Of a stretch of 64,000 bases of DNA, positions 9,435 to 53,578 are shown one piece after another. This stretch comes from a virus (taxonomy: Duplodnaviria > Caudoviricetes). Position 1 is the stretch's first letter; every line of letters starts with the position of its first letter. The DNA lies in the IMG/VR virus record IMGVR_UViG_3300047625_000012, positions 183 to 64,182 of that record. One strand, given 5' to 3'. The translations under genes and the position numbers were made by a program. The notes under the pieces were generated by a model. The model did no database searches, was not told the origin of the DNA, and worked only from the letters and a program-made list of their open reading frames with translations.

Positions 9435-9769
9435 CAGCTTGCATCTTCAGGGGCGGTTGCGCCTACAGACCCGAATGCATTGATTACTGTCAGCACGTAG
9501 AGCGGACTTTCAATATGAGCAACATCAACAAAGTCTCCAACGAACTCTCCCTGGTCACGGTGGTCATGCCCCTGGTCCGAATTCTGGCGGATACCCGGCT
9601 GTCGTGGGCGGAACGCGAGAAGGTCTCCATGGCTATCTGCGTGACGCATCAACAGTGGACTGCGTTGGAGAAAGAGCGCCAGCTCCATCAGCAAGCCCAG
9701 GCGTCCGGCCAGCAAACTCAGAACGGCGGCACCGGCACGTTGAACCGACCACAGTATGATATCGGCTGA
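9431..9769 (+). CDS. Hypothetical protein
   Basis: ATGA overlap; start uncertain. Confidence 0.5.
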   Translation: MTACIFRGGCAYRPECIDYCQHVERTFNMSNINKVSNELSLVTVVMPLVRILADTRLSWAEREKVSMAICVTHQQWTALEKERQLHQQAQASGQQTQNGGTGTLNRPQYDIG

Positions 9770-36951: not shown

Positions 36952-37872
36952 TTACAGGCCCGGAGTACCGTACAGACAGCGGGGGTCGGTGAAGGAGGGG
37001 ATATACCGCTCCGTCGCCTTGTACCGCATGCTGTCGGTCTCGAAGTCTCCCTCCATGCTCTTTTCCAGCGTCCGGCGCATGGCCAGCTTGAGCCCCTGAC
37101 GCACATCGGTCTGGATAAACCATGCCGTCTGTGAGGTAAGGCGCGCGATGTTAGCCTGACCCTTGGGCAGCAGCCCCAGGGACTTGATCGGGTTTACATC
37201 GTTGTTCGCGGTTCCCGCACGCAACACGCTCTTGAGGAGCACTTCGCCCTGCATGACGTTGGACGGGGAAGTGACCAGCTGCAACGGAGTCAGGCGGATG
37301 CGCTTGCCGTTGTTGTCCACCGCATTGCGGACCTGAATGAGCATCTGCTCCAGGGAGGTCTGCGAGAGCGCGGCCGCGGTCGTCAGCTGGTTCGAGAACG
37401 AACCGGCCGGGGGGGCCAGCGGATGGTTGGTCGCAATCAGTGCGACACCGTCACCGCCGGGGAAGGACGCATTGAACGCGTTGTTGATGACGTTCGCGCA
37501 CAGCGTCTCTTTCGTCTCCACCAGCGACTGCGCCAGATGTTCGGCGTAGATGGTGCCGATCTTGATGTGGTCACCGTCCTCGACCAGTACTTTGGTCAAC
37601 GCAAAAGCCAACCCGAAGACGGCGTACAGGTAGCGTTGGATGAACAGCACGCCTCCTGACTGGTAGGTAACCGGGGTGCCGTCAGGCAGTGCGGGAGCCG
37701 CACCCATCCCGAAGAGCACCGGCTCCTCGTGGTAGTTGCGCGGGGTGCCGCGGAACTCGCGGAATATCATCTTCCACTCATCGGCGCGTTGATCGTAGAT
37801 ACCATCGAAGGTTTCGTTGAGGATCGGCTCAACGACTGAGCGGAAGTCTGTACTCCGCATTGGAAGTGCCAT
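36952..37872 (-). CDS. Major capsid protein (HK97 fold, Bcep22/Mu-gpT-like)
   Basis: 306 aa; EE....G.AP..P.G....Y, GDGVAL....HP, NDVNP, AWF, GDFET..RYKATERY...DPR..YG.PG; AGGAG RBS. Confidence 0.9.
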   Translation of the reverse strand: MALPMRSTDFRSVVEPILNETFDGIYDQRADEWKMIFREFRGTPRNYHEEPVLFGMGAAPALPDGTPVTYQSGGVLFIQRYLYAVFGLAFALTKVLVEDGDHIKIGTIYAEHLAQSLVETKETLCANVINNAFNASFPGGDGVALIATNHPLAPPAGSFSNQLTTAAALSQTSLEQMLIQVRNAVDNNGKRIRLTPLQLVTSPSNVMQGEVLLKSVLRAGTANNDVNPIKSLGLLPKGQANIARLTSQTAWFIQTDVRQGLKLAMRRTLEKSMEGDFETDSMRYKATERYIPSFTDPRCLYGTPGL

Positions 37873-40334: not shown

Positions 40335-40865
40335 TTAAATGTAAGCTACCACGCTCAAAACCCGGTCCTCGGGGATACGCCCCTTCATGACAAGATCATC
40401 AAACAGAACAAACAACGCCTTGCCGTCCTCGCTGCCCGGCACATCCACCCACCACCGATCACCGCCGTATTTGGGCACCCGCACGTAATCCCCAACCTTG
40501 CACCAGGCGCCTTCCGGCCACGGCTTCAACGTCTCACGGTTGCAAAACGCCACCGGCCCCAGAGCGATCACCTTGGCAACCTGCATGTTCCACAGGTCGG
40601 TTTCGCGCGACTCCTCCGGGAGGTAGATACCGCCCTTGGTCCGCATCCGCGGCGTGCGGATCTGCACGAGGACATCAGTACCGAACGGAATCAGGTCAGG
40701 ATCAGCGACCGGAAACGCCTGCTCCAGCGTGTCGTAGGCGATGGATGACTTCGCGAACTTCGCAACGGCGAGGTGGTCCAGGTTTTCGAGGGGAACCTCC
40801 CGGCTCACCCGCCCCGTAAACTCGGACTTCTTCTCACGTCTTGCTGCGGTTTCGTCCCGGCTCAT
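40335..40865 (-). CDS. groES: Phage co-chaperonin GroES (Cpn10)-like
   Basis: P.G..VLVQ...RTKGGIYLP...AKVIALGP...WCKVGDYV..PKYGG. Confidence 0.85.
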   Translation of the reverse strand: MSRDETAARREKKSEFTGRVSREVPLENLDHLAVAKFAKSSIAYDTLEQAFPVADPDLIPFGTDVLVQIRTPRMRTKGGIYLPEESRETDLWNMQVAKVIALGPVAFCNRETLKPWPEGAWCKVGDYVRVPKYGGDRWWVDVPGSEDGKALFVLFDDLVMKGRIPEDRVLSVVAYI

Positions 40866-41049
40866 CCTCGTCCTCACGCACAGTCAACACTCTGTTCAGC
40901 GTTTCCTCAGCGAGCCTCAACCCTTCCAACCGACCTACGGCTACGCCCAATGCGTAGGCGGTCTTGTCGGGAGGGTTGGTCAGGCTGTCCACAGCTACTT
41001 TGCTGTGCAGCTCCTGCAGCTCACCGATATACCGATCTAAAACGGACAC
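40834..41049 (-). CDS. Small conserved head-module protein
   Basis: Y...VG...GL..A pattern that usually precedes phage GroES. Confidence 0.6.
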   Translation of the reverse strand: MSVLDRYIGELQELHSKVAVDSLTNPPDKTAYALGVAVGRLEGLRLAEETLNRVLTVREDEDEPGRNRSKT

Positions 41050-42063: not shown

Positions 42064-44655
42064 TCACGCACCTGAGCCGCCTGTTTCGTGTCCGCCGATA
42101 CCGGTACCCGTAGACAGGTCAGTCGAGTGTCCCGTCTCGATCTTGGCGGCTGCGATCTCCAGTGCGGTGGTGTTGTCGGCCTGATTGATTTTCTCGTGAG
42201 AGGCAATCTCTGCCTGCGTGTTCTGCGCCTCGCCCTGCTGCTCAACAACTGTCTGCTGCAGTTTCGCCTGATTCTCCGCAGCCTGCGACTGCTGATCCTG
42301 CTGACCCTTGGACTGCTGCAGCTGTTGCTTGCCCTGGTTGTTGGCGTTGGCAACCGCAATCGCGGTCTGTCCCGGGTCCATCGGAGGCGGCGGCATGAAC
42401 TTCTGCAGCACAGCCTGTGCCTGCTGGATCGCAGGGGGGATCTTGGCCAACACCTGTTTTGACGCGTCCATGACGTGATGCGAGATTTCCGCCAGCGTGT
42501 GGTCCATCTCTTTCTGCGTCTTGGGGTCTTTGTACTGGGTCAGCTCGCCTAAGTCTACCGGCTTACCCGCAACCGCCTCCAGCGCTTTCGAGCCCGTCTC
42601 AACAACTTGTGACAGGTACCAGTATGCAATATGCTCCACGAGGTGTTGCAGACACGCGGGAATGAATTTCGGCGCAATGATCGAGAGCATCCCGAAGAAC
42701 GGGCTCATCATGTAATCAAGATGCACCTGGATGTGCGCAAGCTGGTCCTGCTCGGGGAATGCACCCACCGGCCGCCCCAGGGTCATCGCGACATTCTCGT
42801 TGACGGCATTCAACTCCTGCATCTGCTGCTGCGGTTTCAGGAGGTCTACCGCGTTGGGGATCTTGGTCCGCTCTAGGATCAGCTCTTCTACCTTGCGAGC
42901 GTCGTACAGCTCCGGGTGCAGGTCGGCACGTTGTTGGATAATCTGCAGTTGCGCAAAACGCTGTACGTCGCTGAAGACTTGCGGATCAGAGACAGGGACC
43001 ACGTCGACCGGTCCTTCATAATCCGACCGGTAGGCGAGCATTTCGCCCGTATCATCAAAAATTTCCTCATCCGTGATGTACATCCGGTTGATGCGGTGGA
43101 GGATACCGATCAACCGATCCATCGCCGCGTGCAGCCGTTGGTGGATCGCCGACAGGACTTTCATGCCCTGCTCGATCAACGCGAGCGTCGTGCCCACCGG
43201 CATGTTGGGAGAGCCGTCCTCCGACAGGTTCTCAAACGTGGTGCGGATGAGCGCTTCACCCTGCTCGGTGCACCACCCCAACAGCTGATACAACATCGTG
43301 GACGGCGGGTTGAACGGTACGGCCATCAGGATCTTGCGGATGTCCTGATCCCCGATCGCAGCGCCTTCGATCTCCGTGACCCCGCACACGTTGAGATTGA
43401 GCGTTTCGCCGTTACCTCCGCCCCCTTTCAGGCGCAGCAGCGTCGGCAGATTCTGGATCATGGAGGTATCCAGGAGCCCGCGCAGGCTCCCGGTAGCCGC
43501 TCCGGCCAGCGAACCGGCATAGTGGAGCAGGCCCACGGACTGCGCGCCGCGCCACGGCAGGCACTCGAAGTCCACGAGCCAGCACATGTTCTCGCACTGG
43601 GGGTCGTCCTCTTCCCAGTTGCGCACCACGCGTAAACACTCACGCGAGACCGGATCGATGTCGACGAGATAGGGTTTCGGCCCCTCGCGCATCGCGACCG
43701 CCTCGGGGTCTGAATTGCGCCGGTCACCTGCCACCCGCAGCTGATCCGTGTCCTCAAGCTCCGCCAGCACCTCGCACACCAGGATGCGGCGCAAGCCGTC
43801 TTTGTTGTCGGCGGTGATGCTGCTCTTGCCTTCGACTTTGTCCGTCGCCTTTTCTGCCCGCGTTTTCTCCGGCATCTGCGCCGGGGCCATGAGCGGCACC
43901 TTGACGTAGTAATCCTGCCGGATGCGGGATTCCAACTCGTGCTGGGTAATCGTATCCACCAGGGTGCGCCGCTCAGCCGAATAGAAATCGCTCGCCGCTT
44001 CGGGTATCAACACCTGATCGATCGGCCAGAATGTCGGGACGGGCCGCTTCTTATCCGAGTCGTACACGAGGCGCATGTACTGCGAGCCGGCGGGCAGCTG
44101 CTGCGAGAGCAGCTTCTCCAGCTGCGAGCGGAATTCCGGCATCTGCTTCCGGAACTGCCAGTTCATGTGCGCGGTCTTGCGGTCCGCCTTCTGCAACCGG
44201 TCCGGGGTCTGTTTGCCCGGTATCCATGACTTCGTAGGGCCGTTGGGCGGCATCAGCTCGCCGATCGTGTGTGACTGGTAATACACGATCGCTTTGGACA
44301 TCATCGGGTGAGTCACTTTCGAACCTGCATCAAACGCAGGCGCGCTGACGCTTTCCCCCGCAAGCCCGGTGCGTTTGATTCCTTCCTCGTACTGTTTGTC
44401 CCGGTCCGCGCGCGACTGCTTGTCGTACTCAATGCGTTCCAACAGCTCCGTGGTGAATCCCTGCAGCTGGGTAGAGTCCAGCTCGGGGACCAGGTTGCGG
44501 TAGAACTCCGTCTCATCCGCAGGAGGCTTGTCGTCGCCTTCGTCTTCCGTCTTGACGATCGCACCGCCGTCGTCGGTGTCGGTCACTCCGGGGGAGGATT
44601 CGTTGGGCTCCCCATCCGAGGGGTAGGAGCTGTTCTCTCCGTCGTCAAGTGCCAT
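42064..44655 (-). CDS. Portal protein (P22/Bcep22-like)
   Basis: 863 aa; V.HP......Q....EL.P..GP.K, LR.LLD....NLP, PVGTTLALIEQG.KV.SAIH.RLH, Q-rich barrel tail. Confidence 0.9.
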   Translation of the reverse strand: MALDDGENSSYPSDGEPNESSPGVTDTDDGGAIVKTEDEGDDKPPADETEFYRNLVPELDSTQLQGFTTELLERIEYDKQSRADRDKQYEEGIKRTGLAGESVSAPAFDAGSKVTHPMMSKAIVYYQSHTIGELMPPNGPTKSWIPGKQTPDRLQKADRKTAHMNWQFRKQMPEFRSQLEKLLSQQLPAGSQYMRLVYDSDKKRPVPTFWPIDQVLIPEAASDFYSAERRTLVDTITQHELESRIRQDYYVKVPLMAPAQMPEKTRAEKATDKVEGKSSITADNKDGLRRILVCEVLAELEDTDQLRVAGDRRNSDPEAVAMREGPKPYLVDIDPVSRECLRVVRNWEEDDPQCENMCWLVDFECLPWRGAQSVGLLHYAGSLAGAATGSLRGLLDTSMIQNLPTLLRLKGGGGNGETLNLNVCGVTEIEGAAIGDQDIRKILMAVPFNPPSTMLYQLLGWCTEQGEALIRTTFENLSEDGSPNMPVGTTLALIEQGMKVLSAIHQRLHAAMDRLIGILHRINRMYITDEEIFDDTGEMLAYRSDYEGPVDVVPVSDPQVFSDVQRFAQLQIIQQRADLHPELYDARKVEELILERTKIPNAVDLLKPQQQMQELNAVNENVAMTLGRPVGAFPEQDQLAHIQVHLDYMMSPFFGMLSIIAPKFIPACLQHLVEHIAYWYLSQVVETGSKALEAVAGKPVDLGELTQYKDPKTQKEMDHTLAEISHHVMDASKQVLAKIPPAIQQAQAVLQKFMPPPPMDPGQTAIAVANANNQGKQQLQQSKGQQDQQSQAAENQAKLQQTVVEQQGEAQNTQAEIASHEKINQADNTTALEIAAAKIETGHSTDLSTGTGIGGHETGGSGA

Positions 44656-44841: not shown

Positions 44842-46383
44842 TTATCCATCGTAAGGGTTACTTCGTTTCCGTTGCTTGAGCCGCTCAGCCGCCGCCACGA
44901 CGGCCTTAATCGGATCGGCGCGCACTGTCAAGCGGATATTGAACTTCCGCATGAACAAAAGCAAAGCCTGGGTCCCCGTATCGAGCAGGTCATCATGCTC
45001 CAGCGACCCCTCCCCCACGTAGGTGCAGAACTGGTTGATGACGGGCTCTGCCCAGTCCCTGGGCTGGCTCGGGCGCTTCAAAGACTCGACCGCCCATACC
45101 CTCCCATGGGGGAACAACGGCGAGGCGCCATGGAGCTTGGAAAGCTTGTCCATGTCGGTAGGGAAGCGCTCCGCCAGAATCCCCTCCGTGGCGAGCTGCT
45201 GGACCAGAGACTTGCCCGAGCCGGTATCTTCGATCAGCAGCAGATCAATGGTCCGGCCCTGGTGGGACGGCCGCTGTGCGCGGGAGATGAGCGCGGGGCG
45301 CAGGAGGGGCTCTTCGGTATCCCCGTACGTGAAAGTCCGCTCGTGTTTCACCTTGCGCACCAGATCCGGAAAGCCCAGGTACTCTTCCCAGGCGTCCAGC
45401 AACATGATGTGGTCACGCCGTTCGTACTCAAACAAACCCCACACGGTACAGGCGGTCGGGTCGCCGGTCTGCTCCTTCTTGTTCCAGGTCTCCTCGGTAA
45501 AAGCCGTATCAAGTGACATTACTACGAAGCGGAATTTCGGCAACGGCTTTTTCGCCGGCCACAGCCGCCAGTCGCTGCGCTTGACGAACCCGGCTTCTTC
45601 CGGGTCGATTACCTCCCCGTAGATTTCCTGCCGCCCGATCCGGGTGCCTTCGTACTTGGCGATATTCTCGTAGAAAATATCCGACAGGTTTTCGGCGTTC
45701 TCGTAGGTACTGCCCGATATCGTGATGGAGTTTTTCAACGCCATCAGCATCTTGATGAACGGCTTGGGCTTCGGGGTGCCCGTCCAGAACACCTGCGGGT
45801 GTTTGCCTAACCGCAACCCGAATATGAAATTGTCAAACGCCTTTTCCGCGTAGCGCCAGGACGCAACCTCATCGAGCCAGCCCCGGTGACACTGCGGGCC
45901 GCGCAGACGCTCCGGCACATCCGCAGAGAAGCCCAGAATCTTCGCATCGTTGTAGAGGGTTATTTCCGGCGGTGACTTGGTCGAGTGTTTGATCAGCTTC
46001 CGGGGCAGCACCGGGTACTGCTTTCCCGGCGGTCCGATCAGCCCGGCTTTATCCTCATACGCACCATGAAGTCCTGTCGGCCCGTAGAAGCACGTCTTGA
46101 TCAGATCTTCATGGGTAGGAGCGATGACAAAGTTATACGAGCCTGGATCGGTAGCCGCCATGTCCGCGATCCAGCGGGCACCGGATACCGTCTTACCGAA
46201 TCCGCGTCCGGATTTGATCCCGAAGAAGTCCCACTTGTTATCGTCCGGGGGCAGCTGCTTGGCCCGGGCGAGCGCCTTCCAGCGCAACCGCGCGCCGAGA
46301 AGCTCCAGGTCTTCATCCGAGAAACGGGACAGCTTGTCGCGCAGTTCGCGCGGGTCTTCGAAGGGGAGTTTGACAGCGGCCAT
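44842..46383 (-). CDS. terL: Terminase large subunit
   Basis: Q motif, Walker A GRGFGKT, LRGPQ, Walker B WLDEVA, TGTP, GRQEIYGE, nuclease SLDTA...HDDLLD. Confidence 0.95.
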   Translation of the reverse strand: MAAVKLPFEDPRELRDKLSRFSDEDLELLGARLRWKALARAKQLPPDDNKWDFFGIKSGRGFGKTVSGARWIADMAATDPGSYNFVIAPTHEDLIKTCFYGPTGLHGAYEDKAGLIGPPGKQYPVLPRKLIKHSTKSPPEITLYNDAKILGFSADVPERLRGPQCHRGWLDEVASWRYAEKAFDNFIFGLRLGKHPQVFWTGTPKPKPFIKMLMALKNSITISGSTYENAENLSDIFYENIAKYEGTRIGRQEIYGEVIDPEEAGFVKRSDWRLWPAKKPLPKFRFVVMSLDTAFTEETWNKKEQTGDPTACTVWGLFEYERRDHIMLLDAWEEYLGFPDLVRKVKHERTFTYGDTEEPLLRPALISRAQRPSHQGRTIDLLLIEDTGSGKSLVQQLATEGILAERFPTDMDKLSKLHGASPLFPHGRVWAVESLKRPSQPRDWAEPVINQFCTYVGEGSLEHDDLLDTGTQALLLFMRKFNIRLTVRADPIKAVVAAAERLKQRKRSNPYDG

Positions 46384-46403
46384 GAGCGCGTCAACGTAAC
46401 AGC

Positions 46404-46610
46404 TTAAGCGGGGGCGTCAACCGCTTTCCGCATTGCTTCGCGCAGATTCCTGTCCTTATCTTCATCCAGAAGATCAATCAGCCTTAACTCGTGAGCACGC
46501 GTCGGGTCCAATGAGTTCCAGTAATCAATGTCTTCTAACAGACACATATAGGCGCCGTGCCGCCCCACATACAGACAACGCCAGGGGCGCGGGTCATCTG
46601 TGTCAGTCAT
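46404..46610 (-). CDS. Hypothetical protein
   Basis: Overlapping-gene chain. Confidence 0.55.
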   Translation of the reverse strand: MTDTDDPRPWRCLYVGRHGAYMCLLEDIDYWNSLDPTRAHELRLIDLLDEDKDRNLREAMRKAVDAPA

Positions 46611-46797
46611 GTGCCCGTGCCCTGCGACGACGCTCCTCCAGCTCCCCGCAGATCGTACGCATGTCTTCAATTACGCTGCCCGGCATACGGACTACTACCG
46701 AAGACCGGAACCAACCTTGGTACTTGAGTGCAGACAGCTCCTGCAGAATCTCCGACAGCCTCGGGTCACTGACCGGTGGGCGTAACAGCCGACGCAT
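46603..46797 (-). CDS. Hypothetical protein
   Basis: Overlapping-gene chain. Confidence 0.5.
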   Translation of the reverse strand: MRRLLRPPVSDPRLSEILQELSALKYQGWFRSSVVVRMPGSVIEDMRTICGELEERRRRARAHD

Positions 46798-47371
46798 TCT
46801 GCGCGCTCCGTAATTTAGCGTTGTCTTCCAACAGCGCCGCGATCTGCATCGACATGCGGCTCAGGGTCTGGGTCATCTCCGCATTCTGCTTGAGCAGCTC
46901 ATCCAGCCGCCCATTCAACTGTTTGTTCTGCTCCATCGTCTCGGAAAGCCTGCGGTCATCGCCCTGCGCGTGGGGGGACACAGAAGGACGGTTGCCCGCA
47001 AGCTTCCCGAGACTTTCCTTTACTTCAGGCTGGTACGACGCACGCATGTTGGCCATCTGAGCGCGCTGCGCTATCTGTGCATCCGACAGATTCAGGTGTT
47101 TGTAGACCGCACCGGCTTTGCGCGCATCATCCGGCGGGTTGCAGGCAAGACAACGCACCCAGGCCCACTTCATGAGACGCTTGGCGCCGACTCCGCCCGC
47201 ACCGAACAGCGGCTGCGCTTTGTTGCCCCCGCCGGCTGCGACGAGTCCCGGGGTCATGCCGTTCTGGCATTCCGGATTACGGCAGTCCGATCTTGCGCGG
47301 CGTGTCTGCGGACCGGCCTGGGCACGTGCTGCCAGCTCCCCCAGGCCTACGCTTTTATCCTGCGTAGCCAC
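46766..47371 (-). CDS. Zn-finger plus coiled-coil protein
   Basis: CxxxxC...CxxC then heptad repeat. Confidence 0.65.
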   Translation of the reverse strand: MATQDKSVGLGELAARAQAGPQTRRARSDCRNPECQNGMTPGLVAAGGGNKAQPLFGAGGVGAKRLMKWAWVRCLACNPPDDARKAGAVYKHLNLSDAQIAQRAQMANMRASYQPEVKESLGKLAGNRPSVSPHAQGDDRRLSETMEQNKQLNGRLDELLKQNAEMTQTLSRMSMQIAALLEDNAKLRSAQNASAVTPTGQ

Positions 47372-47374
47372 TCC

Positions 47375-47869
47375 CTACTCCTGTAACACCATAATACTGT
47401 TGATACCGTCATTACGGAACACCAGCTCGTTAACGACCTTGAAATCTGCCTCAGGGATAGCGATACGAGTACGAATCTTATACTTCGTCTCGGTAACCGG
47501 AAGGCCTTCATAGACTACGCTGCCCGGCCCGCAGCTATCCTCCTCAATCCGCATCTCCTTGGCGTACCGCCAGTACAATACGGGGCGCGCTGACTTACAG
47601 GTAGCGTGGAGTTTAAAGAGCGCCGTATACAAAGTCTGCCGCAGTTGTTCCGCTGCGTTCTCTATAGAAGCCGGCGCAATAGCCGCCAGTGTCATGTAAG
47701 GATAGTCTTGATATCTCCTTACAGCGTAGTCCCACTCAGCATGCCATGCGCGATGATCCCCATCCTTACAATCAAACATGCGTTCGATCTGCAATACTAA
47801 TGCTTCTATAGACCCGAACGGCGCTTTGCGCGGTGCGGGCTCCCCAGAGCTGTTGGTTTCGTCACTCAT
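47375..47869 (-). CDS. Hypothetical protein (lower GC)
   Basis: 164-aa ORF; visibly more AT-rich than its flanks. Confidence 0.65.
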   Translation of the reverse strand: MSDETNSSGEPAPRKAPFGSIEALVLQIERMFDCKDGDHRAWHAEWDYAVRRYQDYPYMTLAAIAPASIENAAEQLRQTLYTALFKLHATCKSARPVLYWRYAKEMRIEEDSCGPGSVVYEGLPVTETKYKIRTRIAIPEADFKVVNELVFRNDGINSIMVLQE

Positions 47870-48285
47870 AACACCGGTACCTTACGGCCGTTCTCAGGCC
47901 ACCATCCGACCTTGCGCCCGAGGATCAGCGCCTGCGGGCCTTTGCTCCAGGCGAATACATACTTCAGGTTGTCGCACGAATTGCGCCACGCTGACCAGCA
48001 GTACGCACGCCACCACGCAGGCGCATCGGGCATGTAAGGCGACAGTACCCCGTTGATCCAGATGAGCGCGTAGATCCCGCTCACGCCGTCTTCCGGGTTG
48101 TCGTAAAGGAAGCCCACCGGAGCAAACCGCCAACGGTCGACTCTACGCTGGTTATCTTTTACAGACGGAATAGCGCTGACGTACCAAGCATGCGTCAGGC
48201 AGAACGGAATGAGCACGACCCAGCCCAATACTGTGGCCAACAGCTGTATCAACTGCACAACGGTGAACCACAACCAGCCGATCAC
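47866..48285 (-). CDS. Trp-rich membrane protein
   Basis: N-terminal TM; DNPEDGVSG...W.AWRN conserved phage pattern. Confidence 0.65.
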   Translation of the reverse strand: MIGWLWFTVVQLIQLLATVLGWVVLIPFCLTHAWYVSAIPSVKDNQRRVDRWRFAPVGFLYDNPEDGVSGIYALIWINGVLSPYMPDAPAWWRAYCWSAWRNSCDNLKYVFAWSKGPQALILGRKVGWWPENGRKVPVL

Positions 48286-48590
48286 GGTAACGCCTCGTAC
48301 GCCTCTTGCAGCGACTTACCGGACAGCAACAGTTTCTCGAACTTATCTATATCTTTATCCCGCAGCCGTTCGCCCCAGCCTTCCGCCTCAACTGCTGACA
48401 TCACGTAGGTCGTCTCAGTCATGATCCGCATGTCCCGCGTGACCAGCAAGCACGTATCTCCTTCTCCTACCTTGCGCGCCTTGAAAAGATGGAATGCACA
48501 CTGGTGATCACAGTTGCAGGCTTCTTTGGCTCGATCCCAACTCACGGCATTGCACTCCCGACACGTCTGTCGTTGGCTTCCAGCACCCAT
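48282..48590 (-). CDS. Hypothetical protein
   Basis: Cys-rich N-terminus; start uncertain. Confidence 0.45.
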   Translation of the reverse strand: MGAGSQRQTCRECNAVSWDRAKEACNCDHQCAFHLFKARKVGEGDTCLLVTRDMRIMTETTYVMSAVEAEGWGERLRDKDIDKFEKLLLSGKSLQEAYEALP

Positions 48591-48949
48591 TCGGACTCGT
48601 CCAGTGCGGGCGCCTCGACGATATTGACATACGGCGCGAACGGATTCGACTTGGTATGAGCCAGGATCGAGAACACCACATTACGCGCCTGCTGTAGCCG
48701 GATGGTGTGTACGTACAGGATATACGCGAACGAGGGGCCTACGTCCCGCGCGGCCATCTCCAGCGACATCCTGTTGAGCATGAAGTAGGTCGGCTCCCTG
48801 CGGAGGTCACGCAACGGCTCATAATCCGGACGCTCTTCGCACAGGTCAAAGAACCGTTTGGAGCGCGCCCGCTCCGCGATCTCATCATTGAGCCGGTCAA
48901 CTCCGCCGCGTCGTGTCATAGAGCCCCAGCTCTTCGGGAAGATATTCAC
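48542..48949 (-). CDS. Capsid A-domain-like protein (paralog of 53282-53578)
   Basis: L..SLE.A....PS..Y.LYV.......A......I.A.T..NPFAPY...V....L...EW aligns without gaps to 53282-53578; resembles MCP ~169-255. Confidence 0.6.
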   Translation of the reverse strand: MNIFPKSWGSMTRRGGVDRLNDEIAERARSKRFFDLCEERPDYEPLRDLRREPTYFMLNRMSLEMAARDVGPSFAYILYVHTIRLQQARNVVFSILAHTKSNPFAPYVNIVEAPALDESEWVLEANDRRVGSAMP

Positions 48950-49292
48950 CGTTCAATGCCATCTCAGCCGCGCGTCGGATGACGGGGTCAGTGTCGATGA
49001 GCTTTTTTATTTTTGGGGAGACGATCAGCTGACGCGGTACGATCGTAAGCCTGGACCACTCACCTGCTTTTTTCAGGTTTACCAACATCTCCTCAAGCGA
49101 TTCCTGCGTGAGACTCGCTGCGGCTGCGTTGGAAAAATTACTGTTTGTCGTGTTCCAATAAGTACCGTTCGGCCATACGAACAGCTTCGATCGTGGCGGC
49201 AACGAGATGACCGGCTCAACCGTTCCGCGCCACGGGACGAGTACCGCACCGGCGCTGCCGGCCAACAGCGATATGAAACCCCGCCGGTTCAC
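48897..49292 (-). CDS. Tat-leader protein carrying a major-capsid fragment (MCP 159-203)
   Basis: MNRRGFISLLAGSAGAVLV leader; FSNAAAASLTQESLEEMLVNLKKA...RLTIVPRQLIVSP vs MCP FSNQLTTAAALSQTSLEQMLIQVRNA...RIRLTPLQLVTSP. Confidence 0.8.
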   Translation of the reverse strand: MNRRGFISLLAGSAGAVLVPWRGTVEPVISLPPRSKLFVWPNGTYWNTTNSNFSNAAAASLTQESLEEMLVNLKKAGEWSRLTIVPRQLIVSPKIKKLIDTDPVIRRAAEMALNGEYLPEELGLYDTTRRS

Positions 49293-49555
49293 TCGACATC
49301 CTGAGTCAACATGAACGTCTCTCCGTAGACGACATGCTCGTACGACGGCGGGTTGAAAGCGGTGTTTAGTATGTTGTGCACCAGGCTTTCTTCAGTCTCG
49401 ATCATCGAGCGCGCCAGGTGTTCCGCATAGAGCCGGCCGATCTTTTCCCAATCCGGCTCGACCGCGCGCAATGCCGTCTGTGCCAGCTTGGTCTGAGATG
49501 CAAACGCAACGACGGCAGTCGCCGCAAGCGCTTTGAAAAAGCCTCTGCGGTTCAC
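49289..49555 (-). CDS. Tat-leader protein carrying a major-capsid spine-helix fragment (MCP 101-134)
   Basis: MNRRGFFKALAATAVVAFA leader; 20/34 ungapped identities to own MCP; GTGA overlap (alternative ATG 49561). Confidence 0.85.
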   Translation of the reverse strand: MNRRGFFKALAATAVVAFASQTKLAQTALRAVEPDWEKIGRLYAEHLARSMIETEESLVHNILNTAFNPPSYEHVVYGETFMLTQDVE

Positions 49556-49788
49556 GGACATTCCCCCAGCTTCATCAGCTCCAAAGCGCAATCAGCTTGT
49601 GCAGGCGGCTTGCGCAAGGGGTTCACGTCGCAGTCTGCGATTCCAGTACGACAACCCTCACAGCACGGGTTCAAATAGCCGTTCCACCACTCCGCAATGC
49701 CCTTACGACGGAATGCCTCACGAAAGCCCGACGGCAATCTACGACGGTAAAACTCACTGGGTCTCACGGCCGACCCAACGCATGCCAC
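49552..49788 (-). CDS. Small Cys-rich hypothetical protein
   Basis: CCEGC...C...C...C; overlapping chain. Confidence 0.5.
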   Translation of the reverse strand: MACVGSAVRPSEFYRRRLPSGFREAFRRKGIAEWWNGYLNPCCEGCRTGIADCDVNPLRKPPAQADCALELMKLGECP

Positions 49789-49961
49789 AGGTGCCAGAGC
49801 GGGTCACGCCAGGGAGGCACCCGGTAATCCGCCGGCAGATTGTTGGTCTGAAAACCCCACCGGATGAAGCGTTCACGCGCGACGTTGTGGCGCAGGCGGA
49901 TCACCGCACGGCGGGTACGCTTACCCAGCTTCGGCGGGATCGTCCCCCTCCGGAGTCTCAT
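49764..49961 (-). CDS. Small basic hypothetical protein
   Basis: ATGA overlap. Confidence 0.5.
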   Translation of the reverse strand: MRLRRGTIPPKLGKRTRRAVIRLRHNVARERFIRWGFQTNNLPADYRVPPWRDPLWHLWHALGRP

Positions 49962-50359
49962 CGTCCCTCCTCATCCCGTCCCGGCTGTTTCGGTCGACCG
50001 TACGGGTACTCGAACAGCTCCTGCTTGAGCAGGTAACCTTCCAGCAACCACACCTTGCTGACGGCGTCCGCGCGTGCAGCCATACGCCCGACATTTGAAT
50101 CGAAGTTGGTCAGGGAAGACGGCGCAGACATGCCCGTGACCTTGAACCCGTTCCTGAGCACCAGCACGCACACGGTGAGCGCCGGCATCTCACCGCTTAT
50201 GAACTTCGGGTCCACCTCCGGGTTGGTGAGCCAGATGGGGATCGCATCGCCTGTGATATAGGCTTCGGCGACGATCGTCGCCTCGACGTGCGCCAGCGTA
50301 ATGCGCGGTGCGGTGAGCCCCTTCGCCTGGATCTCCGTCTCGATCTCGTTATCCGTCAT
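49958..50359 (-). CDS. N4 gp49 / Sf6 gp66 family protein (family of the Acb4 cGAMP sponge)
   Basis: IE.EIQAKGLTAPRIT..H.E...LT.CVLVLRNGF.VTG.SA.....NFD...GR..AR..A..KVW.LEGYLLKQ. Confidence 0.85.
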   Translation of the reverse strand: MTDNEIETEIQAKGLTAPRITLAHVEATIVAEAYITGDAIPIWLTNPEVDPKFISGEMPALTVCVLVLRNGFKVTGMSAPSSLTNFDSNVGRMAARADAVSKVWLLEGYLLKQELFEYPYGRPKQPGRDEEGR

Positions 50360-50661
50360 GGTGCAAACCCTTTGTAGTGTTCGTAGTGTACCGCCCAGAA
50401 CTCGCGCTTGACGACATAAGCGACCTAGTCCACGCACTCGTTGCAGATACAGACCCCGTCGTGATGAACCAGCAGCTCGGTATTGTCCTGCAGACTCGCG
50501 CAGTAATGACAGCGGCGTTCCTGCCTGATCAGGATGCTGATCTCCTCCAGAGCGTGGGGAGAAAGACGCGGACGGCGCCAGCGGCCCCACAGCCACCAGC
50601 GTACCGGGTTGGATCGCGGATGAGCCGTAGAACAGAGCGCAACGCCGTCCGACATCTTCAC
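50356..50661 (-). CDS. ClpX-type C4 zinc-binding-domain protein, interrupted by in-frame TAG at 50425-50427
   Basis: CHYC......ELLV....VCICNECVD; frame continues 22 codons to a TGA overlapping the next ATG. Confidence 0.6.
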
Positions 50662-50731
50662 TCCTTACAACACGCCTGACACGGCTTGCACCGTGCCCGC
50701 CAGCGTTCAGGTAGCCGGCAGATCCAGCGCA

Positions 50732-51097
50732 CTAGCCAAGCTGGATAGGCGCACCCAGTTGAGGAGGGACGACAGTGTCCACCGTCGCGGTGATCGGCGG
50801 CGAGAAGTCACCCTCGTTGCCCTGCGCGTCCATCAGTGTGAACACGAAGTCGTAGGAGCCGTTACCCAGTCCCCCGGGCAGCTCGGTGGAGATGGGATCG
50901 TCCCAGTACTGCACAGGCGGTGTGCCCACGGTCTTCGTGGTCAGTGCGGACACCGGCCCGGCATCGATACGCGCCGCCTGGGTATAGGACGGCGTGAGCG
51001 GTGTGGGGCCGTAGTACACGATCAGGTGATCGGTACCCGGCGGCGCAGGCGTGGGGATGGGAATGCCGAAATCCTTCAAAGGCACAGTCTTGGACAT
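50732..51097 (-). CDS. Ig-like / FN3-like domain protein
   Basis: G.YDFVFT..DA.GNE.DFS....TVDT..P; GAGGAG RBS. Confidence 0.65.
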   Translation of the reverse strand: MSKTVPLKDFGIPIPTPAPPGTDHLIVYYGPTPLTPSYTQAARIDAGPVSALTTKTVGTPPVQYWDDPISTELPGGLGNGSYDFVFTLMDAQGNEGDFSPPITATVDTVVPPQLGAPIQLG

Positions 51098-51110
51098 GAG
51101 GTCGACTCCT

Positions 51111-51494
51111 CTAGTGGGTCGGTTTGGAAAGCGTGGAAGGGATGGGAACGCCGATGCTGTTGGCGTACACCGGAGCAGACATGACACCCGCGGAGTTCAC
51201 CGCGAAAATCTGCACGCACACCGGGTTCAGATTCGTGGGGTAGATCGGCGACCGGGTCGCAGTCGCTGCCGCGTTGATACCGCCCTGGACCGTACTGACC
51301 GTATGGGAAGCCGTGCACGAGCCCCACTCGATGCGGTAGCCGGTAAGGTCGGTGAGCGGCGTTCCATCGCTGTTCTGTACCGGCGCCGTCCAGCCGACGA
51401 ACAGTTTGGCCGCGTATACCGGGTAGGCCGCACCGACGAAGATCGCGGTGCATAGCGCTACGATGATCAACAGCAGAAGCGGTGTGCGTTTCAT
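51111..51494 (-). CDS. Exported fibronectin type III domain protein
   Basis: Signal/TM leader; WTAPVQNSDGTPLTDLTGYRIEWG...AVNSAG..S. Confidence 0.8.
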   Translation of the reverse strand: MKRTPLLLLIIVALCTAIFVGAAYPVYAAKLFVGWTAPVQNSDGTPLTDLTGYRIEWGSCTASHTVSTVQGGINAAATATRSPIYPTNLNPVCVQIFAVNSAGVMSAPVYANSIGVPIPSTLSKPTH

Positions 51495-52198
51495 CGCACG
51501 ATTCCCAGGCCGCCCGGAATCGCCGACGTAGCGCTGACAGTAGTCTCGCTGCTGGTTATCTGACCCGCACCGTACTGCCGGCCTTTAGCCGTTACGCTCA
51601 ACGACGCCCATTCATCCGGGACCACGGGGTGCAAACCGTCTACGAGGGAGCCCGGGTGGTTGAATACCGGCTTACCCTGGAGCACGTGCAACAACAACGA
51701 CCCTTCCATCCACACATCGTTGCAGCAATAGTCGATGACCTTGCCGCGTTTACCCTGTTGCCACCACACCGGCGCCAGCGCACCGTGGCCGGTCTTGCGG
51801 ATACCGAGGGTAGCCTGACACACCGCATCCAGGCCCCAGCCGCCGTGCGTACGCGGGTTGAATGTATCCGGGTTCAGGTCGAGCGCGATCCAGATCCCGC
51901 GCAGGATATCGTAGTGATGCTCCGCATCGACGACGATGTCATGCTCCAGAAGCAGCCGGTTGTCGAAATTGACGGTGTTGAAGCCCGCGGTCCACTTGCC
52001 TGCGATGTACGCCTGGAAGTCTTCCAGGTCCTCTTCGAGAAATACGCGCGTCAGGTGCGTGACGATGTCGTACGTACAGACGCATGCGATACCCATGTTG
52101 GCGAAGTCGCGCCACCCGTCGCAGTACTCGATGCCTTCGAGACGCTCTTCGGTGCGGCTCCGGATGGCTTTCTTGATCTCAACATCAACTACGATCAT
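51491..52198 (-). CDS. DnaQ/RNase H-like 3'-5' exonuclease
   Basis: VVDVE, GFN..NFD, HYDIL, LDAV...LG, YCCNDV (DEDDy). Confidence 0.85.
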   Translation of the reverse strand: MIVVDVEIKKAIRSRTEERLEGIEYCDGWRDFANMGIACVCTYDIVTHLTRVFLEEDLEDFQAYIAGKWTAGFNTVNFDNRLLLEHDIVVDAEHHYDILRGIWIALDLNPDTFNPRTHGGWGLDAVCQATLGIRKTGHGALAPVWWQQGKRGKVIDYCCNDVWMEGSLLLHVLQGKPVFNHPGSLVDGLHPVVPDEWASLSVTAKGRQYGAGQITSSETTVSATSAIPGGLGIVR

Positions 52199-52455
52199 GT
52201 GCCGTACTCCGAATTCATACAAACCAACACGTGTTCCTTGCTGGGGGCGTCTTCAAGGCTACCTTCGACATCGATCGCGACGAACCGGGTGTGACCATAA
52301 CAATAGCCTTCACGCCATGCCGGATCGGTAACGCCCGGGAAAGCCAACGAACGACTGCAGTCGCACGCGCCGTTACCCTCCGTCCACCAGAATACCGACA
52401 TGTCAGCGCCCTTGGCGGTCTTTCCGGTACGTAGATCAAGAAATGTCGGGATCAC
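52195..52455 (-). CDS. Hypothetical protein
   Basis: FWWTEGN.ACDC.R conserved phage motif. Confidence 0.7.
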   Translation of the reverse strand: MIPTFLDLRTGKTAKGADMSVFWWTEGNGACDCSRSLAFPGVTDPAWREGYCYGHTRFVAIDVEGSLEDAPSKEHVLVCMNSEYGT

Positions 52456-52682
52456 GATGGCGTGCCTTGTGAAAGCTGTTTCAATTGCGCGCCCAGCTGC
52501 CCGATGTTATCCCCGAAAGGTACACCGAACTTCGCACAGCCGATATGGAAATACAATGAGCGCAGCATCTGTGCGCTGAGCCGTACCGGGCTTTGCGTTT
52601 CCAACAGATCGAACTGCCACTGGTTGTTGCGCAGGTACGCAAAGCACTCATCAAGTGAGTGTACCGGGGTATCGCGGTTCAC
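52452..52682 (-). CDS. Hypothetical protein
   Basis: GTGA overlap chain. Confidence 0.6.
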   Translation of the reverse strand: MNRDTPVHSLDECFAYLRNNQWQFDLLETQSPVRLSAQMLRSLYFHIGCAKFGVPFGDNIGQLGAQLKQLSQGTPS

Positions 52683-52855
52683 GCGGCGTACTCCCCACCC
52701 AGATTTTCGCGCATGGTCAGCGGCTTGCGCCTGGCGCGCACTTCGGCTTTCTCATCCTCACTGAACTCACGCACTTCACCGTTGGGCAGGATCTCCAGCA
52801 TGACTTCATCCTCGCGTTCCAACATGCGCGCGAGTTCGTCGATGGTAGGCTTCAT
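52679..52855 (-). CDS. 58-aa hypothetical protein
   Basis: MKPTIDELARMLEREDE...; 4-bp overlaps on both sides. Confidence 0.6.
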   Translation of the reverse strand: MKPTIDELARMLEREDEVMLEILPNGEVREFSEDEKAEVRARRKPLTMRENLGGEYAA

Positions 52856-53100
52856 TTCGGCGGCCCGTTGGGTGCATTCCTGTGCCAGCTGCGTGAGCGG
52901 TTGTTGCTCGGCACATGGCGCTCATCCTGCGAGGGGAGCTTGGCGCACTGGCACGTCGCACAGTGTACTTGCCCCGCTTTGTCCAATTCCGCCAGCGCGT
53001 GGACAGTTCCGAGGTAGTGTGCGCTTCCTGTAGCCCCTTCCGCCTCGAACAAGGTTTTCAAGCTCTCCAGCTGTGCGCGCGCAATCAACAATGCAGTCAT
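52852..53100 (-). CDS. Hypothetical protein
   Basis: ATGA overlap chain. Confidence 0.55.
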   Translation of the reverse strand: MTALLIARAQLESLKTLFEAEGATGSAHYLGTVHALAELDKAGQVHCATCQCAKLPSQDERHVPSNNRSRSWHRNAPNGPPK

Positions 53101-53282
53101 AACCCCTCGTCCTCCTTCACAACAGTCCCGGGCATGAGGAACGCGAAGAAGACTTCCGCGCGCTGCACGATCGCAGCGGTATCCTGCGGAGCAATCCCTT
53201 GGAAAGCCTCGTGGAGTGCCAGCTCCAATGCTTTGGTGCGCAGTTCGGCTTCTACCGTCACGCTCCAGGAGTTCCTGGGCAT
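53097..53282 (-). CDS. Small helical hypothetical protein
   Basis: R.KALELA......IV.RA..F..FL pattern; TAATG overlap. Confidence 0.6.
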   Translation of the reverse strand: MPRNSWSVTVEAELRTKALELALHEAFQGIAPQDTAAIVQRAEVFFAFLMPGTVVKEDEGL

Positions 53283-53578
53283 TACAGTCCCTCCGATCCC
53301 CATGACTCATCCTCACCGTTGGTGATGCACCACTCCTGCGGTTCGAGCCTGCCATCGTAGACGAGGCTGATATACGGCGCGAAAGGGTGCTCCTGCGTGG
53401 TAGCGCCGATGGTCTTCAACAGCCTTGCTGCCCAGGGGTGCAGACGCTCACCGACATACAACACATAGGAACGTGAAGGACGCATACGCAGCGCGCATTC
53501 CTCCAGTGAGGTGACCGACAGGGTGCACGTCGTCGGCAACCGCGAATAAAGCCTGAGTTCCTGCGCCTTCGTTGTCAC
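53282..53578 (-). CDS. Capsid A-domain-like protein (paralog of 48542-48949)
   Basis: LSVTSLEE...LLKT...P...RL...W.I vs MCP LSQTSLEQ...LLKS...NP...RL...WFI. Confidence 0.6.
   Translation of the reverse strand: MTTKAQELRLYSRLPTTCTLSVTSLEECALRMRPSRSYVLYVGERLHPWAARLLKTIGATTQEHPFAPYISLVYDGRLEPQEWCITNGEDESWGSEGL

Follow-up and report, generated by a model that had tools for sequence, protein, structure and literature searches.

Two tandem phage genes joining a conserved twin-arginine-type leader to short segments homologous to the major capsid protein

Why would a tailed phage, here an uncultured one from soil, carry pieces resembling its own major capsid protein (MCP) behind what looks like an export signal? 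The question is raised by two small, overlapping open reading frames (ORF1 and ORF2; positions 48897-49555, minus strand) in a 64,000-nucleotide (nt) stretch of the IMG/VR virus record IMGVR_UViG_3300047625_000012 (positions 183 to 64,182 of that record), hereafter termed the window. An earlier note, made from the sequence alone, had described the pair as twin-arginine translocation (Tat) leaders fused to consecutive capsid fragments, had joined them with a third gene into something like a split second capsid gene, and had proposed that the fragments could act as bait for a capsid-sensing immune protein or could jam TatBC. At the level of sequence, the comparisons presented here establish ORF1 and ORF2 as real, selected and horizontally mobile accessory genes that combine a nearly invariant leader with a short, hypervariable cargo, and we hold the reality of this family to be nearly certain.

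Gene layout and capsid homology

The features of the gene pair, together with the capsid gene to which their cargo is compared, are the following:

49289-49555, minus strand: ORF1, 88 amino acids (aa) from a GTG start; a twin-arginine leader precedes a segment copied from the MCP "spine helix"
49493-49555, minus strand: ORF1 leader, MNRRGFFKALAATAVVAFA, then SQ (putative signal-peptidase site of the A-x-A type)
49352-49453, minus strand: ORF1 cargo block, homologous to MCP 101-134 (tblastn coordinates)
48897-49292, minus strand: ORF2, 131 aa from a GTG start; a twin-arginine leader precedes a segment copied from an MCP helix-strand region
49188-49292, minus strand: ORF2-type leader, 35 aa, MNRRGFISLLAG.AGA.LVPWRG..EP.I.LP.R; an A-x-A cleavage site is not evident
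49014-49139, minus strand: ORF2 cargo block, homologous to MCP 158-203 (tblastn coordinates)
36952-37872, minus strand: MCP, 306 aa, the source type of the cargo segments (Phage_capsid_4, E 5e-8; Mu-like_gpT, E 5.9e-5)

The two genes are translationally coupled through a GTGA in which the TGA stop of ORF1 overlaps the GTG start of ORF2, and the GTG codons are preceded, 6 nt upstream, by GGGGGA (ORF1) and AGGA (ORF2). An in-frame ATG is also present at 49561, 6 nt upstream of the ORF1 GTG and abutting the GGGGGA. Seven homologues of ORF1 (67-102 aa) and 21 of ORF2 were found, and because MNRRGFFK begins most homologues, the GTG was taken as the ORF1 start. Both ORFs open with MNRRGF, as had been noted earlier, and in both of them an uncharged hydrophobic stretch follows (M)NRRGF.

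That ORF1 carries a segment of the MCP, and ORF2 the next one, is borne out by several comparisons. ORF1 aligns to MCP 101-134 without gaps (20/34 identical, pairwise E 1e-12), ORF2 aligns to MCP 158-203 (19/46 identical, 2 gaps, E 3e-7), and in a tblastn search of the six-frame window with the MCP, ORF1 (E 8e-9) and ORF2 are the two best matches beyond the MCP gene itself. When family profiles were compared by hhalign, with an 11-sequence alignment on the MCP side, the ORF1 family matched at a probability of 98.2% (E 4.1e-14) and the ORF2 family at 95.4% (E 1.9e-8). A hidden Markov model (HMM) built from 122 MCPs scores ORF1 at 6.8e-13 and ORF2 at 2.6e-5. The similarity is significant against shuffled controls, because the best of 1280 composition-preserving shuffles (of 64 small ORFs from the surrounding island) reached 0.28 and none came near the two genes. 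In 8/8 sequences the ORF1-type block also retains the MCP-invariant residues, among them the helix residues G, L, S, T and N.

The likeness to HK97-fold MCPs of the Phage_capsid_4 or Mu gpT type (PF25209, PF10124) is one of local homology in two segments. The aligned capsid-like length in ORF1 and ORF2 is only 34-46 residues, short of a full-length capsid fold, and unlike those proteins the family consists of fragments with no confident fold and with blocks out of order. Neither ORF matches a capsid family in Pfam or PHROGs, and the predicted products are not capsid proteins. The MCP itself has more than 6000 relatives at E<=1e-10, and its family profile gave no match at E<=0.01 among PDB sequences. 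When the 64 small island ORFs were compared with 24 large late proteins (BLASTP, E<0.05), no portal or terminase fragments were found, and all four matches were to the MCP.

The earlier note had placed a third gene beside the pair and read all three, in MCP order, as a divided capsid gene. That gene and its paralogue, for which Pfam and PHROGs gave no family match, are:

48542-48949, minus strand: ORF3
53282-53578, minus strand: paralogue of ORF3, 35% identical to it

This part of the proposal fails. ORF3 has no similarity to the MCP (best BLASTP E 3.2; 0.2% probability and E 0.31 in hhalign), ORF1-type and ORF2-type genes form distinct families whose occurrence is not linked (L009 has the ORF2 type only), and across the leader family the MCP blocks are often disordered (e.g., MCP 274-303 ahead of 139-199 in P0118). 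ORF3 itself is 72-77% identical across relatives, both those that carry the leader genes and those without them, and is present also in one of the latter, G003. Because it is not MCP-like and is kept in G003 without leader genes, it is neither a capsid piece nor a dedicated partner of ORF1 and ORF2.

The leader-defined family

A profile of the leader, built on residues 1-35 of 12 ORF2-type genes, matched 108 clusters at E<=1e-3 (58 at E<=1e-10) among 1.84 billion representative proteins. In 103 of these 108 clusters the match is a single stretch in a protein of 33-172 aa, mostly from residue 1; the other five, which comprise long, repetitive proteins matched in multiple stretches, were set aside. 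The leader is near-invariant and the remainder variable in the ORF1-type and ORF2-type alignments alike, and several ORF2-type homologues carry unrelated C-terminal parts. All eight ORF1-type sequences agree in the residues N, R, R, G, F, F and K and in most of the hydrophobic stretch, and at least 90% of 120 family members retain R3 and R4, such that the twin arginines are conserved in homologues as the Tat interpretation expects. Among Pfam, PHROG, NCBIfam and PADLOC, no family was found to cover these proteins beyond weak Tat-signal matches, and a full-text search of the literature (supplements not included) returned no description of proteins combining a Tat leader with a virion-protein fragment.

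The pattern of substitution locates the constraint. Over leader codons 2-22 (55 pairs, 11 genes), the proportion of synonymous differences (pS) is 0.67 and that of nonsynonymous differences (pN) 0.12; most synonymous sites of the leader DNA vary among the genes, and the twin arginines are encoded by CGG, CGT, CGC or AGG. Because synonymous sites differ while the peptide is kept, selection on the leader is on the peptide and not on the DNA. In the six ORF2-type genes that can be aligned, pN rises from 0.13 for the leader to 0.35 for residues 23-35 and 0.52 for the linker, and stands at 0.45 for the MCP-like block and 0.47 for the tail, with pS at 0.63-0.78 throughout (0.78 in the MCP-like block, 15 pairs); as pS is saturated, the pN/pS ratios are upper bounds. 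The leader is the most constrained part of these proteins, and the cargo is under weaker constraint, yet is not neutral.

The default pattern of TatP is RR.[FGAVML][LITMVF] (PMC1182353). Both leaders fit the twin-arginine pattern (RRGFF in ORF1, RRGFI in ORF2), with the RR kept through many synonymous codon changes, and the pattern is present in 115/124 family members; the nine misses comprise seven gene calls that start at a Met or Leu inside the leader, one HR and one KR. The residue preceding the RR is N in 102/115 members. After RRx there is a median of 16 uncharged, Gly/Ala-rich residues (mean Kyte-Doolittle 1.59) and then Pro-Trp-Arg with a conserved Arg; a short, moderately hydrophobic, Gly/Ala-rich stretch followed by Arg is characteristic of Tat signals rather than of Sec signals or transmembrane segments. 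ORF1-type leaders end in A-F-A in 8/8 sequences, followed by S-Q in six and by A or D in two. The Pfam TAT_signal model matches 17/120 members at E<=0.05 (best E 0.0032), and TM_PetC, the uncleaved Tat anchor of Rieske proteins, matches 7/120 (best E 5.5e-4).

The likeness to Tat signals and to the Rieske anchor (PF10518, PF25471; TIGR01409) consists of the RRxF-hydrophobic arrangement, the Gly/Ala-rich stretch, the basic residue after it, and the putative A-x-A site of the ORF1 type. Differences stand beside it: here the leader is much better conserved than the passenger, which is the reverse of ordinary secreted proteins, and, unlike the passengers of Tat substrates, the passengers here are virion-protein fragments with no cofactor or enzyme domain. 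The leader is common to the window phage, to G001 (MCP 37% identical) and to G002 (MCP not detectably related), and the occurrence of the same leader in phages with unrelated heads is more readily reconciled with a conserved receptor in the host than with a partner that is phage-specific. Phage records G000-G002 (G000 being the full record of the window) encode no TatA, and any export would therefore use the host machine. Given these traits, the leader probably confers Tat-type targeting, a judgment that we make with moderate confidence.

A separate observation concerns the conserved extension of the ORF2-type leader. The PhoD family is a classic Tat substrate, and in a bacterial PhoD-like phosphatase (L018, 8226-9833; PF09423, E 2.8e-90) the signal peptide ends in ...LVPWRG ahead of an A-Y-A site. 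This likeness may hint at the origin of the leader; the match was selected by pattern, so that it is possibly due to chance.

The cargo is far more diverse than the leader. At least one MCP block lies behind the leader in 36/124 family members (MCP HMM, independent E-value <0.05), a count that is biased toward conserved MCP parts, and the combination of leader and capsid fragment that the earlier note had suggested looking for in other phages does recur. The reused blocks are conserved MCP parts, at residues ~8-33, 76-137, 139-203, 240-269 and 267-303, and further examples of disordered blocks are P0091 (270-302 then 101-137), P0124 (240-266 then 133-190) and P0057 (272-289 then 111-130). By single-linkage clustering, 120 cargos fall into 34 clusters. 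The largest has 46 members, 36 of them with MCP blocks, and is followed by clusters of 15, 12, 10 (Ig/PKD-like), 5, 3 and 2 members. When the family was searched against the window, the MCP gene was the sole match beyond the leader genes.

In other phages, the cargo includes segments of other virion proteins. G001 has a tandem pair after the terminase: the first gene has an ORF2-type leader and three MCP blocks, and the second has an MNRRDLFK-type leader (TAT_signal E 0.0017), a block like MCP 139-152 and a Cys-rich tail. In G002, which has no detectable relative of the window MCP, the cargo matches three tandem Ig/PKD repeats (E ~1e-8) that lie in the phage's own 715-aa tail-fibre-like gene. 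A more distant RR-led mini-gene in G014 (101 kb) is located just downstream of a T4-type portal gene (PF07230, E 8.9e-19), and its cargo is identical to that portal at 15/26 positions (E 9e-6). Single Pfam matches among the 120 members, to P22 coat protein and to a portal family, follow the same trend; Pfam left the cargo of 10 non-MCP cargo representatives unexplained.

In a limited comparison, the expectation that each fragment tracks the MCP of its own genome fares differently for the two blocks. For the ORF2 block, the resident MCP is at the maximum of 19 identities (five MCPs reach 19, none higher). For the ORF1 block, the resident MCP is identical at 20/34 positions, but 89/122 MCPs score 21-24, and this block appears nearer the MCP group consensus than its own genome's MCP. 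Similarly, the G001 cargo scores 37 bits against the window-type MCP and 27 bits against its own. No recent capture is seen, since the identities to source copies are all 35-59%; the cargo copies look old and maintained, rather than the product of ongoing copying or of tight co-evolution with the resident gene. Precursors of ribosomally synthesized and post-translationally modified peptides and diversity-generating retroelements were considered as descriptions of the family and dropped, with no search aimed at either, given a cargo of 40-130 aa with virion-protein homology and this level of source identity.

The leader genes are optional and accessory. They occur in 0/10 largely complete relatives with MCPs 75-97% identical (a match of 10 positions and 13.5 bits in G012 is not a leader), and in G003 (MCP 97% identical) other small genes lie between the ORF3 homologue and the gp49-family gene. 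Where the leader genes are present, copies are single (L009), paired (window, G001, L015, G013) or triple (L008). A leader scan that took a single genome from each of 185,579 bacterial and archaeal species gave 167 pattern matches, none of them confirmed, and against 50,697 phage records a tblastn search with ORF2 gave no match and one with ORF1 matched the MCP genes of 5 records only. A sequencing-run search found the window stretch in one soil metagenome DNA run, which may be where it came from, and listed no RNA runs containing it.

Some further features of these phages were recorded along the way. The G003 site (L102, 4907-5611) holds a 234-aa ORF that by eye resembles a GIY-YIG endonuclease, plus a small membrane protein. 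In G002, two large ORFs (680 and 742 aa; at 9639 and 7262, minus strand) likewise open with RR-type leaders, and in G013 (28270, plus strand) a second RR-led small gene overlaps the end of the first. The terminase large-subunit ORF of G001 (L002, 4810-7497) is 895 aa long and contains a long insert that by eye resembles an intein or a homing-endonuclease insert.

Genomic setting and neighbouring genes

The window comprises nearly all of G000, a virus record of 64,182 bases with a CheckV completeness of 94%, and its late genes are on the minus strand. The closest cultured phages are the Caulobacter phages RW, RLK, KcrB and GB2A, and because these nearest relatives (MCP identity 73%) infect Caulobacter, the host of the window phage is likely Gram-negative and probably alphaproteobacterial. 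The principal genes around the leader genes are:

44842-46383, minus strand: large terminase
42064-44655, minus strand: probable portal, 863 aa, named from its position and conservation beside the terminase (no match in Pfam)
40335-40877, minus strand: GroES-like protein, 180 aa, candidate phage co-chaperonin within the head-gene block (Cpn10 domain, E 9.7e-7)
49958-50596, minus strand: N4 gp49 / Sf6 gp66 family protein, encoded shortly upstream of the leader genes (PF13876, E 4.4e-23; phrog_322)
50425-50661, minus strand: 78-aa ORF of the same island that lacks a leader; a block resembling MCP 140-183 (50521-50652) is followed by a ClpX-type zinc-finger-like tail

The true start of the 49958-50596 gene is likely the internal MTDNEIE. 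In the leaderless ORF at 50425-50661, the MCP-like block is detected by tblastn (E 0.007) and by the MCP HMM (0.021, compared with 0.28 for the best shuffle), the tail matches the ClpX N-terminal domain at E 0.002-0.005, far under the whole-protein cut-off, and L009 and L010 have, in the corresponding position, sequences 44% identical to the N-terminal 43 aa of this ORF. Two other ORFs gave signals of the same kind. At 46766-47371 (minus strand), just upstream of the terminase, a conserved, coiled-coil-rich protein of 201 aa has an unexpected MCP-HMM match (1.2e-3; best of 1280 shuffles 0.28) in which residues 111-197 align to MCP 114-199; the match may reflect helical composition. Directly upstream of ORF1, a Cys-rich 78-aa ORF (49552-49788, minus strand) has a weak BLASTP match to MCP 218-243 (E 0.016) that the MCP HMM does not support (1.1), and it was rejected as an MCP-like piece. 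Additionally, an ORF of 127 aa at 51111-51494 (minus strand) has an N-terminus that by eye resembles a classical Sec-type signal peptide, and its product would be a further exported small protein of the island.

A scan for promoters and terminators (46000-53000) found nothing exceeding shuffles, and a repeat search (48000-51500) found short, chance-like repeats only and no bracketing pair.

Possible functions of the leader genes

The function that we rank first for ORF1 and ORF2 is that of a membrane-directed mimic or decoy. The leader would direct the mini-protein to the host Tat translocase in the inner membrane, where ORF1 would be cut between A-F-A and S-Q and freed as a helical peptide of ~67 aa, and where ORF2, which has no cleavage site, would remain as a Tat-type signal anchor. 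The cargo would mimic capsid segments and compete for a factor that binds those segments; because MCP-invariant residues are kept in the cargo, it could occupy the site of such a binder. The bound factor would then be held at the membrane or taken out of the cytoplasm, and the most plausible factor would be a host sensor of core virion proteins. Two lines of background place this reading ahead of the others, namely that the cargo classes match the proteins sensed by STAND (signal transduction ATPases with numerous domains) proteins and that Tat carries bound partners. STAND sensors, including Avs7, Avs8 and Avs10, are described as detecting the MCP, portal and other core virion proteins (PMC13581612). 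Tat "hitchhiker" export, in which a signal-less partner is exported bound to a signal-bearing one, is likewise described (PMC10924467) and would, by analogy, let an RR-led mini-protein carry a bound partner. The dependence on Tat, the topology and the cleavage are steps that we infer, as are the mimicry and the nature of the target, and the whole chain, with the membrane-directed decoy role at its end, is one we put forward tentatively and consider doubtful in its entirety. A narrower form of it, in which Tat serves as a disposal or sequestration route and non-activating copies of virion segments drag immune sensors to TatBC, to be held or exported there, is less probable again.

A considerable number of observations weigh against the mimic or decoy reading. 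All HMM scores of the leaders lie under the curated cut-offs: the ORF1 leader reaches E 0.016 (15.6 bits, cut-off 22.7) with Pfam TAT_signal and E 0.034 (14.5 bits, cut-off 16.7) with TIGR01409, and the ORF2 leader has no match to the Tat HMMs of Pfam or to TIGR01409. The TatP regular expression, used alone, gives 15-23% false positives among RR-bearing cytoplasmic and membrane proteins, according to its source (PMC1182353). No A-x-A site follows the hydrophobic stretch in ORF2-type leaders, and Tat targeting does not account for the conserved PWRG..EP.I.LP.R tail of these leaders. On the side of the cargo, no MCP block was detected in 88/124 members, 27/34 cargo clusters are singletons of unassigned origin, and no source of the G013 cargo could be detected in the genome of that phage. 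AlphaFold models of both proteins are of low confidence, with a predicted local distance difference test score (pLDDT) of 55 and a predicted template modelling score (pTM) of 0.29 for ORF1, and a pLDDT of 62 and pTM of 0.34 for ORF2; at the MCP-like blocks the models contain helices only (e.g., one long helix at ORF1 38-69, also of low confidence), and a search of the ESM Atlas with ORF2 was uninformative (best score 0.79). The predicted folds give mimicry no support, and judging from the models neither protein resembles an autonomous domain; both may be disordered until bound. PADLOC defence and candidate defence models gave 0 matches to 10 island proteins (E<=0.01), and no known anti-defence or defence family was matched. 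Furthermore, isolated trigger fragments might activate a sensor instead of blocking it.

The chief alternatives differ in where they place the working part. The leader may not be a Tat signal at all, and could instead be a signal for Sec or the signal recognition particle, a simple anchor in the membrane, or a targeting peptide peculiar to these phages, of the kind represented by the capsid-targeting sequence of the T4 internal proteins; the HMM scores under their cut-offs and the ORF2 leader without a Tat match point that way, and a conserved tag with hypervariable cargo in a plastic locus is reminiscent of the internal-protein locus of T4. We regard this as unlikely, given that the RR is present in 115/124 members with KR and HR as the sole replacements seen, and that a Gly/Ala-rich stretch of 16 aa followed by Arg has the traits of Tat; a tag specific for capsid or scaffold is further disfavoured by the same leader in phages with unrelated head proteins. 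The leader could also be the working part itself, saturating or blocking TatBC or signal peptidase or perturbing the membrane, with the cargo largely filler, for which any short, harmless polypeptide would suffice and for which pieces of the phage's own genes would be the handiest stock for illegitimate recombination. The distribution of constraint (leader pN 0.12-0.13 against 0.45-0.52 for cargo at similar pS), the diversity of the cargo (34 clusters from 120 cargos), the low confidence of its predicted fold, and a PWRG..EP.I.LP.R extension that exceeds the needs of targeting alone would all be consistent with such a role. However, pN is below pS in every segment of the cargo, the ORF1-type block holds its MCP-invariant residues in 8/8 sequences, a few conserved MCP blocks recur in independent arrangements, and filler would not come so consistently from virion proteins; this reading, filler included, is in our view rather improbable. 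Much the same small weight is given to the possibility that the exported protein acts in the periplasm or envelope, for example in superinfection exclusion or receptor masking directed at related phages. An export-type leader as the most conserved feature, an A-F-A/S-Q site that is clean in 6/8 ORF1-type sequences, Ig/PKD-like tail-fibre cargos that could bind surface glycans, and the optional nature of genes within an accessory island would suit this role, but an incoming capsid or portal is never in the periplasm, the cargos are mostly internal segments without an obvious target there, and no similarity to PHROGs or PADLOC families was found.

Two further readings take the capsid homology at face value. 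In one, the capsid-like block would co-fold or dock with the full-length capsid protein or portal and tether part of it to the inner membrane, which would help or time head assembly. The cargo does retain conserved MCP residues of the buried type, and the genes are on the late-gene strand beside the terminase and head genes; nevertheless, they are absent in 10/10 close relatives with near-identical head genes and are for that reason not needed for assembly, and the ORF1 block is not closest to its own MCP, such that a tether is very unlikely. The other reading, that these are decaying pseudogene pieces of a duplicated capsid gene, open by chance, is prompted by two blocks from adjacent MCP parts with ORF1 ahead of ORF2 as in the MCP. 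Against it stand intact ORFs with conserved starts in many phages, strong selection at the protein level, the finding of no further MCP pieces in other frames of the region (tblastn), the unrelatedness of ORF3 to the MCP, and the family-wide shuffling of block order; it is so improbable that, as far as sequence analysis reaches, the conservation data exclude it.

Comparison with known phage systems sharpens what would be new in a membrane-directed mimic. The internal proteins of T4 combine a conserved capsid-targeting sequence with small, hypervariable cargo in a hyperplastic locus, and the leader genes resemble them in the conserved N-terminal tag, the variable small cargo, the tandem arrangement, and a likely role in an arms race. 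They differ in that the tag here is Tat-like and common to phages with unrelated heads. Capsid-sensing immunity is exemplified by Lit and the Gol peptide of T4 gp23, and by CapRel. Such sensors read short MCP segments or folds, and the cargo classes of the leader family are among the proteins that are sensed; in those systems the triggers lie within the full capsid protein, whereas in the leader family the fragments have genes of their own and stand behind an export-type leader.

If the proposed role is correct, ORF1 and ORF2 would belong to a widespread, previously undescribed class of phage accessory genes, with ~100 clusters sharing a single leader, and would be the first example of tailed phages routinely exploiting Tat. 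They would join two fields that have been unconnected, protein export by Tat and the ways in which core virion proteins are sensed or mimicked, and would yield testable hypotheses on which segments of capsid, portal and tail proteins are relevant to the host or to rival phages. Should the disposal of sensors in particular prove correct, it would represent a new principle of counter-defence, and the cargos would constitute a natural catalogue of the virion epitopes read by bacterial immunity. Whether or not the decoy idea is right, an invariant export-type leader joined to shuffled, selected virion pieces, in optional genes that move between unrelated phages, needs a functional explanation.

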